Below are positions 33,724 through 36,072 of a stretch of DNA of 64,000 bases, in pieces (the first letter of the stretch is position 1; every line of letters starts with the position of its first letter). The stretch lies in contig CAWDEM010000004.1 in NCBI GenBank assembly GCA_963801355.1, positions 424,811 to 488,810 of the forward strand, written 5' to 3'. The position numbers were made by a program, and so were the translations under genes. The notes below the pieces were generated by a model. It saw only the letters and a list, made by a program, of their open reading frames with translations. It was not told the origin of the DNA and ran no database searches. The DNA is from Ignavibacteriota bacterium. GTDB taxonomy: Bacteria > Bacteroidota > Ignavibacteria > UBA10030 > UBA6906.

Positions 33724-34580
33724 TCAATTCCCCATTGGGCATAGATCGGTACTGCTTCGGGAGCCTGCACCACGTTTAATGGTAAGGTTCAGGAAGCAGT
33801 GCAGTCCAGCAGCTATGAAGATATTGGCGGTTCTGGCAAACACAACTCCCAATACGATTCCGACCAACAGAATCCGCACCAAAGAAGGTATCATGTCCCA
33901 GAGACCTTCCCTGTTGACAATGAGCCGACCGGGAAGATGTGCAACCATAAATAGGAGTGCAGATGCAAGAACGGACGTTAGTGCAGCGCTACCCAGACCG
34001 AAAGAGAATCGTTCGCGTGCGAGCTTATAGAATTGCAGCATGAAAAAGCCACGCAACAACACCTCTTCGAAAACGCTTCCAATGACGATCGCTTTCGCTA
34101 AGTGATAACGACTCACAGTCACCACCGAACGGGAGGCCTGTGACGATCCGACCGGTGAAGGCAATTCCCTCTAGCCGTGCGGAGCATTTGAACGGACAGC
34201 CACAGGAGTAGCAGCACAACGATTGCTGGAAGAATCAACTCCCTCCTGATCCCGACATCCCTGTGGCTTAGACGTCCCACCACAAACAGCACGACAATGA
34301 CTCGGATGGACTGGAGGATGAGCATTGAGACAAACCGCTCATCGAGCCATTGTGAAGTGGCCTGCGAGAGTGCAGTTAATAACTCCGTCTGAACGAGTGT
34401 TGGGTAAACCCAAGTGGAAGTGAGGATGAGAACGGTGTATGCCAAAACATAGAGCCACCAAGGAGAAGTTCTTACCGTCGCACTGAGGGCCTCGCTCTCG
34501 GCCAACCACTGATTCGACCGTGGGATTAATGAGCCTCCTCCCCCATCCGACGTTCCCGCCTGACTCATTGAAGTGGCCAT
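33724..34580 (-). pseudogene. CPBP family intramembrane metalloprotease (CAAX protease/Abi), frameshifted
   Basis: The C-terminal frame (33724..34164) holds all three CPBP motifs (FEEVLLRGF, FMVAHL, GLHCFLNL). The N-terminal TM segments lie in another frame (34119..34580). Confidence 0.7.
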
Positions 34581-34657
34581 ATTGAGTGCACACTATACCG
34601 GGGATAATTCCTAGCGCGATATGGCCGACTTGATTCCACGCACGCTCCCCTCTCCCC

Positions 34658-35296
34658 TCACGCATGTGCGTCGGGTGCGGACGTCACGTCGGGTGCAACT
34701 TCGATCGTGCGTCCTTTGCCAAGAACACCTGAAGCTTTAAGTAGTTGTAGAGTGCGGCCAAAGTCTGAGCTCGATGGGGTCGTGTTGATGTTGGGTAGCA
34801 TCTCGGACACCATTTGCGAAAGCGAGATTACTCGTATCGGATTCCCCTTTAGCGCACGGCGAAAGCTCTCATTTTGCTCCCACTCAACCGAATTGCCAGA
34901 AATTCGAGTAACGGCAGTGACGTATGTGAACTTGCGAGATCCTGATTCACGAAAGATAGCATCACAGAATGCCTCACTCCACTTGGGATTCGCGAGTTCC
35001 CTAAAAAATTTCCAGGACTCCCGTCCCGACCAAATTTTGTTTTCCTTCAGATTCGTCAGTGTGGAGCGAACATTGAATCCACATTGCCCACTCTTGCAGC
35101 TGACTACCCACACTTTCGACGTTCCTCTGAGATGCGGATTGATCCCGATTACGTCGATGTCACTTGGTACGGAGTCCACTTTGGAAGAAAAGTCGGCGTG
35201 ATTCCTTTGCGGTCGGAATTTCACGTTGTGCCGCGTGAAGTATCCCTTGGCTTGGAGATAATCGTCGACAACTTGTTCAAGTATGTCTTCCTTCAT
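34658..35296 (-). CDS. Hypothetical protein, possible PD-(D/E)xK-like nuclease fold
   Basis: Weak motif E...SDIDVIG...KVWVVSCK; no confident assignment. Confidence 0.4.
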   Translation of the reverse strand: MKEDILEQVVDDYLQAKGYFTRHNVKFRPQRNHADFSSKVDSVPSDIDVIGINPHLRGTSKVWVVSCKSGQCGFNVRSTLTNLKENKIWSGRESWKFFRELANPKWSEAFCDAIFRESGSRKFTYVTAVTRISGNSVEWEQNESFRRALKGNPIRVISLSQMVSEMLPNINTTPSSSDFGRTLQLLKASGVLGKGRTIEVAPDVTSAPDAHA

Positions 35297-35391
35297 CGTT
35301 GGTTCGTGCTCCCTAACAGATTAGGTCCACCAGTGCGGTCAAGACAATATCCAACTCCACGCGGGGTCAGGTGCAGAATCTTGGTGACCGC

Positions 35392-36072
35392 TCACCTGCC
35401 GACCCTAAGAATATCAGGGAAAAGATTCTTTCGAAGACGAGCACCTTTTCGTGAATGTTGCCCAGCTATGAGCCCACGCTCCTCGAGTACTCGCAATACC
35501 TCGTCCTGCGCGTCTTGTCTCAAATAAGTCCCGCGACAGAGATGAGTCATGTCGGAGTTAGAAAGACGCCTATTGTCTCTGAGATGTGCCAAGACCGCCA
35601 GGGCGACGTAGAATTTGCGGTCCCGGTTCTCGCCTGACAGACTATTGTAGATATTCCGGGGATGCGTGTAGTCACGCGTCAAGTATTTTGCTAGGTTAGG
35701 AACAAGATTGTCTTGATCAAAGCCGTCTGCTGACTTGTACTCAATCCTTTGAAGACCTTGGATATCTGCGGGAACTCCTCTGGTGAGTGATCGATTAAGG
35801 AGGATATAGTAGTCAACCCGTAGCCCCTCGGCCAATCCAATTTCAAGCGCAACGTTAGGGTTCCACAGGGAGATGTCGAAAATGCAGAAGTCAACTGCTT
35901 TGATGTAACTGGTGAGAACGCCCAACAAGTGCTTTGTGGTCAGACGAGTATCGGCGTAATACCAACGAAATGGAATCTTGTCGAGAGTGTTCTTGAATTC
36001 CTGAAACGGAAATTCTCCACCGTATGGACACCCGACGAAGACACTGGGTAGCTTGTATGGTGCTCTTGCCAT
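35392..36072 (-). CDS. Hypothetical protein, N-terminal nucleoside-2-deoxyribosyltransferase/LOG-like fold motif, C-terminal wHTH-like
   Basis: VFVGCPYGG...FCIFDISLWNPNVALEIGLAEGL resembles NDT/SLOG-type Rossmann motifs. This is a tentative call. Confidence 0.4.
   Translation of the reverse strand: MARAPYKLPSVFVGCPYGGEFPFQEFKNTLDKIPFRWYYADTRLTTKHLLGVLTSYIKAVDFCIFDISLWNPNVALEIGLAEGLRVDYYILLNRSLTRGVPADIQGLQRIEYKSADGFDQDNLVPNLAKYLTRDYTHPRNIYNSLSGENRDRKFYVALAVLAHLRDNRRLSNSDMTHLCRGTYLRQDAQDEVLRVLEERGLIAGQHSRKGARLRKNLFPDILRVGR

Follow-up and report, generated by a model that had tools for sequence, protein, structure and literature searches.

Genes A and B, two unannotated but fold-assignable genes, and a frameshifted CPBP protease gene in a tRNA-Pro integrative island of an Ignavibacteriota bacterium

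The subject of this study is a group of three neighbouring genes in a stretch of 64,000 nucleotides (the window) from an Ignavibacteriota bacterium (GenBank assembly GCA_963801355.1, contig CAWDEM010000004.1, positions 424,811 to 488,810): gene A, gene B and a gene for a CPBP intramembrane protease. A and B are new, fold-assignable members of known superfamilies and lie, together with the broken protease gene, in a well-delimited integrative island. The three genes probably represent a patchwork of independently inherited single-gene modules in the cargo of an element of about 34 kb integrated at a tRNA-Pro gene (Table 1). Judging from the modelled structures, A is most likely a self-contained sensor-effector, in which a winged helix is joined to a putative TIR/NDT-type N-glycosidase, and for B a minimal nuclease of the Mrr/FokI-like type is the most likely reading. 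Of the two, A is the more interesting. An earlier reading made from the sequence alone (the sequence-only reading) had proposed that the three genes form one defence or immunity cassette. The genes do lie in a mobile, defence-rich island, but no two of them were ever found adjacent elsewhere.

Table 1 Features of the tRNA-Pro island (positions in the window)
Feature	Position	Strand	Basis or remark
tRNA-Pro(TGG)	17911-17986		
attL	17943-17992	+	3' 50 bp of the tRNA-Pro region
Tyrosine integrase	18049-19071	-	beside attL
AAA_25	19768-20832		
AEP-TOTE primase	20751-21782		
Type I restriction-modification operon	24632-29813	-	in pieces
SIR2-APAZ and short pAgo pair	30015-33257	-	PADLOC; context, no joint system with A, B or CPBP
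Short pAgo	30015-31463	-	intact; PADLOC pAgo_I, 7e-198
SIR2-APAZ, main open reading frame (548 aa)	31436-33082	-	PADLOC Aga_SIR2-PNTD, 4e-180
SIR2-APAZ, N-terminal piece in another frame	32976-33257	-	match to Sir2 chain
CPBP protease gene (Rce1-like, PF02517)	33639-34580	-	Pfam, intact homologues, tblastn, DNA alignment
Gene B (212 aa)	34658-35296	-	single-domain nuclease fold
Gene A (226 aa)	35392-36072	-	stand-alone two-domain protein
A, C-domain (residues about 136-226)	35395-35667	-	winged helix, predicted fold
A, N-domain (residues about 1-120)	35713-36072	-	NDT/TIR-like, predicted fold
AAA_24	42890-43936	+	
DnaB-like helicase	44479-45429	+	
Mu Gam-like protein	45422-45988	+	
BNR/sortilin-repeat protein (702 aa)	49043-51151	-	C-terminal type IX secretion system (T9SS) sorting domain (Por_Secre_tail); just inside attR
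attR	51992-52041	+	exact 50-bp direct repeat of the tRNA-Pro 3' end

The relationship between the three genes was assessed at their other loci, of which 16 were available for A (11 genome loci and five further loci with called genes), 87 for B (80 from metagenomes, six from IMG/VR and one from a plasmid) and two for CPBP. The flanks were long enough to reveal a neighbour at 14 of the 16 A loci (at least 800 bp on the relevant side) and at about 60 of the 87 B loci. When six proteins of the neighbourhood were searched with tblastn, A was found in A loci only, B in B loci only and CPBP in its own two only. Neither SIR2-APAZ nor the short prokaryotic Argonaute (pAgo) was found in any of the collected loci by the same means. 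Across all 16, 87 and two loci, no pair among A, B and CPBP was adjacent. All-against-all clustering of the flanking open reading frames (ORFs) revealed no conserved partner of A, and ORF clustering revealed none for B beyond one closely related clade. This clade of 12–14 related metagenome loci shares B neighbours, which are absent from the other loci (about 65) and are therefore interpreted as a sign of common ancestry and not as functional partners. Since the adjacency of A, B and CPBP is not conserved elsewhere, the cassette reading is not supported.

In the window itself, the three genes are present and co-oriented on the minus strand, as had been described. They had been placed downstream of the Argonaute system; however, the order of transcription is A, B, CPBP, SIR2-APAZ and pAgo, and the trio is thus located transcriptionally upstream of the SIR2-APAZ/pAgo pair. 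The intergenic gaps are 95 bp between A and B, 77 bp between B and CPBP and about 380 bp between CPBP and SIR2-APAZ. A terminator scan yielded no convincing terminator between A, B and CPBP. Promoter, terminator and repeat scans of the region from 33 to 37 kb gave counts near the expectation from shuffled sequence and nothing structural. The G + C content is 0.49 for A, 0.50 for B and 0.60 for SIR2-APAZ/pAgo, a difference between modules as expected for a mosaic.

In the protease gene, a piece of 146 aa matches the Rce1-like family PF02517 (E = 4.5e-13, 49.7 bits, cut-off 22.4), and the three catalytic motifs FEEVLLR (EExxxR), FMVAH (FxxxH) and HCFLN (HxxxN) are all located in the middle segment (33775-34113). 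A database search with the merged translation found two relatives only, P0241 (288 aa, 90% amino acid identity, intact) and P0242 (57%). As assembled, the reading frame is interrupted, running through three frames and returning to the first; accordingly, a tblastn comparison of P0241 with the window yields four segments in collinear order, in frames -3, -1, -2 and -3. Compared to the DNA of locus L093, which harbours the intact homologue P0241, the window gene has gained single bases at three sites (about 34176, 34117 and 33785), none of them in a long homopolymer. After removal of the three inserted bases, 288 codons without a stop remain, ending at 33639 as P0241 does. The motifs named in the sequence-only reading are thus confirmed, while its frameshift count gives way to three +1 insertions, and the gene ends 85 bp beyond the position given there (33724). 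For the corrected gene and L093, the ratio of nonsynonymous to synonymous substitutions (dN/dS) is 0.45 at a dS of 0.12. The absence of stops and this ratio in the corrected frame indicate that the damage is either very recent or an assembly artefact. In its assembled form the gene contributes nothing, and the three +1 insertions would have inactivated it.

Of the three genes, CPBP alone is shared with L093: the nucleotide similarity (91%) extends over positions 33523-34604 of the window and no further, beginning 54 bp past the stop codon of B. The flanks of CPBP in L093 differ from those in the window and consist of a 160-aa ORF, a DUF4440 protein and an IS110 transposase. The DUF4440 gene, which follows the intact CPBP homologue in L093, has no sequence similarity to the window. 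Compared to the known CPBP/Abi intramembrane glutamic proteases, the window gene has a significant Pfam match and the three motifs, but this copy is a pseudogene as assembled, and its two close homologues each stand in another gene context, with no link to a bacteriocin or defence operon.

The protease gene is not the only interrupted gene of the island. As assembled, the type I restriction-modification operon comprises hsdR in two overlapping ORFs, hsdS in two and hsdM in at least four pieces, each of the latter in a different frame (HsdM_N, a segment with NAGRNGGEYYTPR, a segment with NPPFGG and a C-terminal segment). SIR2-APAZ is frameshifted near its 5' end and pAgo is intact. Both SIR2-APAZ pieces match the same solved Sir2 chain (8in8_B), the first over residues 7-50 and the main ORF over residues 60-568, and the GAGxSxxxGxP loop is encoded on the N-terminal piece. 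The frameshifts are concentrated between about 24.6 and 34.6 kb, with integrase, pAgo, A and B intact. About 18 kb of chromosome to the left of the island (1-17900) consist of tightly packed intact ORFs without frameshifts. This cluster stems either from recent decay that affected several defence genes or from an assembly problem in this region.

It is conceivable, if somewhat less probable than its opposite, that the frameshifts in CPBP, hsdR, hsdS, hsdM and SIR2-APAZ are all local assembly or consensus errors and that CPBP is intact and functional in the organism. The corrected CPBP frame, stop-free over its 288 codons, with the same stop as P0241 and a dN/dS that is not neutral, is in line with this explanation, as is the fact that all three CPBP lesions are single-base insertions; in addition, the length of the source contig (1.66 Mb) suggests a long-read assembly. 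However, the CPBP insertions lie outside long homopolymers, and the restriction of the frameshifts to a region of about 10 kb, with none in the left flank, the integrase, pAgo, A or B, is unexpected for uniform sequencing error.

Gene A was modelled with confidence (AlphaFold2 pLDDT 89, pTM 0.87) as a protein of two domains. In a fold search of the model, the N-domain showed the flavodoxin-like fold of NDT and TIR domains, with NDT, MilB and DNPH1 matched in the PDB by Foldseek at E values of 1.6e-4 to 1e-3. An NDT-type fold followed by a winged helix had been suggested before and is retained, whereas the LOG/SLOG part of that suggestion is not: no LOG or SLOG structure was among the Foldseek PDB matches, and the closest structural relatives in the fold search were not LOG, DprA or SLOG proteins, which led us to reject this assignment. 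Single-sequence and profile searches of A against the PDB returned chance-level matches only. Scans against Pfam, NCBIfam, PADLOC and PHROGs gave nothing above threshold, and the marginal matches were limited to a PADLOC TIR effector (E = 0.011) and phrog_3634 (2.4e-4). No Pfam family, PF10137 included, matched the window protein at E ≤ 0.1. The family comprises at least 257 clusters at 90% identity, its members are 55–71% identical, and the motif D66-I-S68-x-W70-N-x-N73-V-x-L-E77-x-G79 is invariant. A Shine-Dalgarno sequence of the strong type (GAGGAGG) was observed at the gene; strong Shine-Dalgarno sequences are unusual for Bacteroidota.

More distant relatives of A were sought with a family profile, which was compared with 1.84 billion representative proteins (cut-off E ≤ 1e-3) and matched 1260 of them. 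Beyond the orthologues of A only the N-domain (positions of about 10 to 120) is matched, at either end of proteins of 120–640 aa. When 80 distant relatives reached by the profile at E values of 1e-24 to 1e-15 were scanned against Pfam, PF10137 (CAP12/Pycsar TIR) was found in 29 and PF05014 (NDT) in two. The N-domain of A thus appears to be a distant relative of the CAP12/Pycsar TIR family via this transitive profile link; recent surveys place PF10137 among the TIR families of the STIR clan. Partner domains in the relatives include HTH_24, TrmB, MarR, ArsR, DnaA_C, AbiJ_NTD3, SAP and Mrr_cat, the last of these on one distant relative. Within the motif D..WN.NV.LE.G.A, the residues V, E and G are invariant in the 80 distant relatives, the E being Glu77 of A. 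In the relative P0289, E77 falls in a stretch matching the NDT model. Its position is consistent with that of the NDT-family nucleophile, making Glu77 a candidate catalytic residue. P0289 (601 aa) features two TIR/NDT-like stretches, PF10137 at 393-435 and the A-like/NDT match at 480-589. In other relatives the domain is found at the C-terminus of proteins of 460–640 aa.

In reference genomes, A is matched in Planctomycetia, Acidobacteriota/Terriglobia, Thermoanaerobaculia, Limisphaerales, Rhizobacter, a gammaproteobacterium and Chlamydiae. This patchy, cross-phylum distribution at high identity suggests horizontal spread. A mobile-element or defence setting was found at four of the five further loci, which were inspected gene by gene. 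At L095, which carries the closest homologue on a long contig (P0004, 71%), a SLATT_1/DUF4231 gene follows A after 96 bp and is itself followed by ThsB_TIR, an HNH_2 protein and a BrnT toxin (344-2092), a setting that resembles a defence island. A follows a phage tape-measure gene at L102, is located amid resolvases and a transposase at L104 and lies beside a TrwB-like coupling protein and a relaxase at L105. The fifth locus (L103) is a housekeeping setting. A was not found in plasmid, phage and IMG/VR collections, and no conserved non-coding DNA was detected upstream or downstream of it. The homologues in a Chlamydiae and a Thermoanaerobaculia metagenome-assembled genome are frameshifted, each appearing as two overlapping tblastn segments in different frames (L009 10001-10673; L010 451-1129).

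Structure prediction and fold search assign B to the PD-(D/E)xK fold, which had been proposed from a weak sequence pattern. The alpha-beta-beta-beta-alpha-beta core is present, and the FokI cleavage domain and Mrr-like enzymes are nearest. The putative active site is a variant, E7...D46/D48...S66-x-K68, in which Ser66 stands at the middle position of the canonical D/E (or the Q of Mrr). Family members share the invariant residues E7, Q8, D46, D48, C67, K68, S69 and Q71, and S66 and W70 are near-invariant. The motif 'SDIDVIG...VVSCKSWQ' is presumably the counterpart of 'GID...QxK' in Mrr_cat, with Ser replacing Gln/Glu. In window B, W70, located two residues past the candidate catalytic Lys, is replaced by Gly (35087-35089; CKSWQ to CKSGQ), as it is in the 92% identical relative P0121.

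The family comprises at least 935 clusters at 90% identity, with members 50–77% identical. For the window protein no Pfam match was obtained at E ≤ 1, no threshold of Pfam, NCBIfam, PADLOC or PHROGs was reached, and single-sequence and profile searches against the PDB yielded chance-level matches only. Below the Pfam threshold, Mrr_cat was matched by 17 of 29 relatives (best E 0.0025) and NERD by seven of 29 (best 6.6e-5). In the plasmid, phage and IMG/VR collections B was restricted to Cupriavidus megaplasmids, one Azospirillum replicon and six IMG/VR contigs, often at or near the end of the contig and with uninformative annotation. On the conjugative megaplasmid pMOL30 it lies amid hypothetical genes and near an integrase-family gene. 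Roughly a tenth of the sampled neighbours of B gave strong PADLOC matches, the types being type I methyltransferase or restriction endonuclease, AbiEi, PDC-S02, PDC-M19, PDC-S68, CapP and type IV restriction endonuclease.

From fold and invariant residues we infer the enzymatic activities of the two proteins; any defence role is likewise inferred. In the proposed mechanism, the winged helix of A would bind nucleic acid, as a sensor or a tether, and would control the N-domain, which would act as an N-glycosidase on NAD+ or a (deoxy)nucleotide; A would then be an effector of the conflict or abortive-infection type that functions alone and travels on mobile elements. B may be a minimal DNA nuclease of the Mrr/FokI-like kind, dependent on Mg2+ and active as an oligomer; it features an E...D...SxK site and lacks a separate domain for DNA recognition. 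Mobile-element carriage, an effector-type domain, varied domain fusions and an architecture similar to that of a retron effector make a defence role of A plausible.

Several observations weigh against independent modules or against conflict-related functions of A and B. Given their co-orientation and the short gaps, the three genes may be co-transcribed at the window locus. P0121, the only near-identical homologue of B (92%), is located on a 1,629-bp contig from JGI sample 3300075153, where genes of the same orientation flank it at distances of 112 bp (upstream) and 221 bp (downstream); judging from this contig, a sibling genome may share the window arrangement around B. At 11 reference-genome loci the two neighbours on either side of A are heterogeneous and mostly metabolic or housekeeping (examples being peptidase M2, P450, glutamine synthetase, SDR and RNase J), and PADLOC detected only a generic kinase among them. 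The 140 sampled neighbours of B are likewise mostly housekeeping. Neither of the two window proteins reaches a Pfam, NCBIfam or PADLOC threshold. Overall, a defence role is weakly suggested for the two proteins.

Part of these observations would fit a lineage-specific operon in which A, B and perhaps CPBP cooperate, for example with a TIR/NDT-winged-helix sensor or regulator controlling a nuclease effector and the membrane protease as a third component. The co-orientation, the gaps of 95 and 77 bp, the lack of a clear terminator, the similarly spaced, co-oriented genes around the 92% B homologue, the location in a defence island beside SIR2-APAZ/pAgo and the type I restriction-modification genes, and the Mrr_cat domain on one distant relative of the A N-domain all point in this direction. 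Nevertheless, we regard such an operon as very unlikely: there is no co-occurrence at 14 testable A, about 60 testable B and two CPBP loci, homology to L093 breaks off between B and CPBP, the latter is broken as assembled, and A and B are each kept as a solo ORF across phyla at 55–75% identity. A non-defence role, as a regulator (A) or a repair nuclease (B), is a serious rival. A and B would then be passengers not involved in conflict, with A a ligand-responsive winged-helix transcription factor, the TIR/NDT-like domain of which only binds a nucleotide or oligomerises, and B an enzyme of repair or recombination. This agrees with the metabolic or housekeeping genes that surround A in 11 reference genomes and B at most of its loci (glutamine synthetase, P450, RNase J, DHQ synthase, G6PD, CysRS), with PADLOC matches that are marginal for A and lacking for B, with the absence of A from the phage and plasmid collections and with helix-turn-helix domains of the MarR, ArsR or TrmB type on many relatives of the A N-domain. 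The patchy distribution across phyla at high identity, suggestive of horizontal spread, speaks against it, as do the loci at which A lies within a prophage or a conjugative element, in a region rich in transposons or in a defence setting, and the tie of its N-domain to the CAP12/Pycsar TIR family; moreover, the Glu invariant across 1260 representative relatives argues for chemistry over scaffold. We therefore rate this role as possible but doubtful.

A more far-reaching version of the sensor-effector reading is unlikely in our view. Here, A would be an undescribed single-protein immune or abortive-infection module, akin to the effector of a type II retron without the retron. Direct recognition of foreign or aberrant nucleic acid by its winged helix would activate a divergent N-glycosidase of the CAP12/Pycsar-type TIR/NDT kind, leading to depletion of NAD+ or a nucleotide pool, and the solo ORF would have spread between phyla on prophages, conjugative elements and islands. 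B could in that case be a new, minimal stand-alone restriction nuclease of the Mrr-like type.

Compared to known systems, A is most similar in architecture to the effector of type II retrons, which consists of an NDT-like domain and a winged helix (PMC7736814). The order of the two domains is the same and both are borne by mobile elements. However, none of 17 loci has a reverse transcriptase adjacent to A, a conserved non-coding RNA region is likewise missing from the flanks, and the genes on either side of A in the window are B and a SnoaL-like gene. By sequence A matches nothing in PADLOC beyond marginal TIR hits, and no transmembrane helix was noted in the model. An Rfam scan of the window found tRNA only and no other RNA family. 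The absence of a reverse transcriptase, of conserved flanking non-coding DNA and of an Rfam match excludes A as a member of a retron.

With the CAP12/Pycsar TIR proteins (PF10137, STIR clan) of CBASS and Pycsar, A shares the TIR-like fold of the N-domain, relatives that match PF10137 and the marginal PADLOC matches to TIR effectors. In contrast to these, its partner domain is a winged helix and not a cyclic-nucleotide sensor domain, no cyclase or CD-NTase was found near A among the 25 of 69 neighbour families listed, and no neighbour is conserved. Identity to the N-glycosidases NDT, DNPH1 (Rcl) and MilB-BcmB is 10–22%; A differs from these by the additional winged helix, and the window protein does not match PF05014 or PF15891. 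B differs from the Mrr_cat/FokI-type nucleases (AF1548, LlaBIII nuclease domain, Upx endonuclease domain) in the Ser at the middle catalytic position, which is D/E/Q in the latter, and in having no DNA-recognition, ATPase or methyltransferase partner. It is a stand-alone core of 190 aa, 50–77% identical across phyla.

The 50-bp repeats delimit the integrated element of about 34 kb that holds A, B and CPBP. A 22-mer of the repeat gave two matches, against 0.01 expected by chance. From the integrase onwards the order is AAA_25, AEP-TOTE primase, DUF4145, the type I restriction-modification genes, SIR2-APAZ/pAgo, CPBP, B and A, followed by two SnoaL-like genes, a phage-like AAA_24/DnaB/Gam module and the BNR protein with a T9SS domain. 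The latter protein hints at a host belonging to the FCB group. The phage-like module, comprising replication and recombination genes on the plus strand (42890-45988), suggests that the element may be composite or similar to a satellite or prophage. The tandem SnoaL-like genes (PF07366) are located directly upstream of A (36425-36985 and 37156-37671, minus strand), and both code for hydrophobic N-termini with a Cys (LMGC, IVGC), by eye suggestive of lipoprotein signals.

A conserved cassette beside a short pAgo would have represented a new multi-gene defence system. This is not the case: the genes are not co-conserved, and this lead can be dropped. The predicted folds, on the other hand, are not those of unrelated housekeeping proteins, and what is left are two large unannotated families, A and B, with assignments at the level of the fold and with candidate catalytic residues to mutate (Glu77 in A, D48 and K68 in B). 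The locus itself illustrates a defence island in which, as assembled, frameshifts interrupt the restriction-modification, SIR2-APAZ and CPBP genes alike. Family A indicates that the combination of NDT domain and winged helix known from type II retron effectors circulates in the absence of retrons as well, and A is a cheap candidate for single-gene phage-defence screens.

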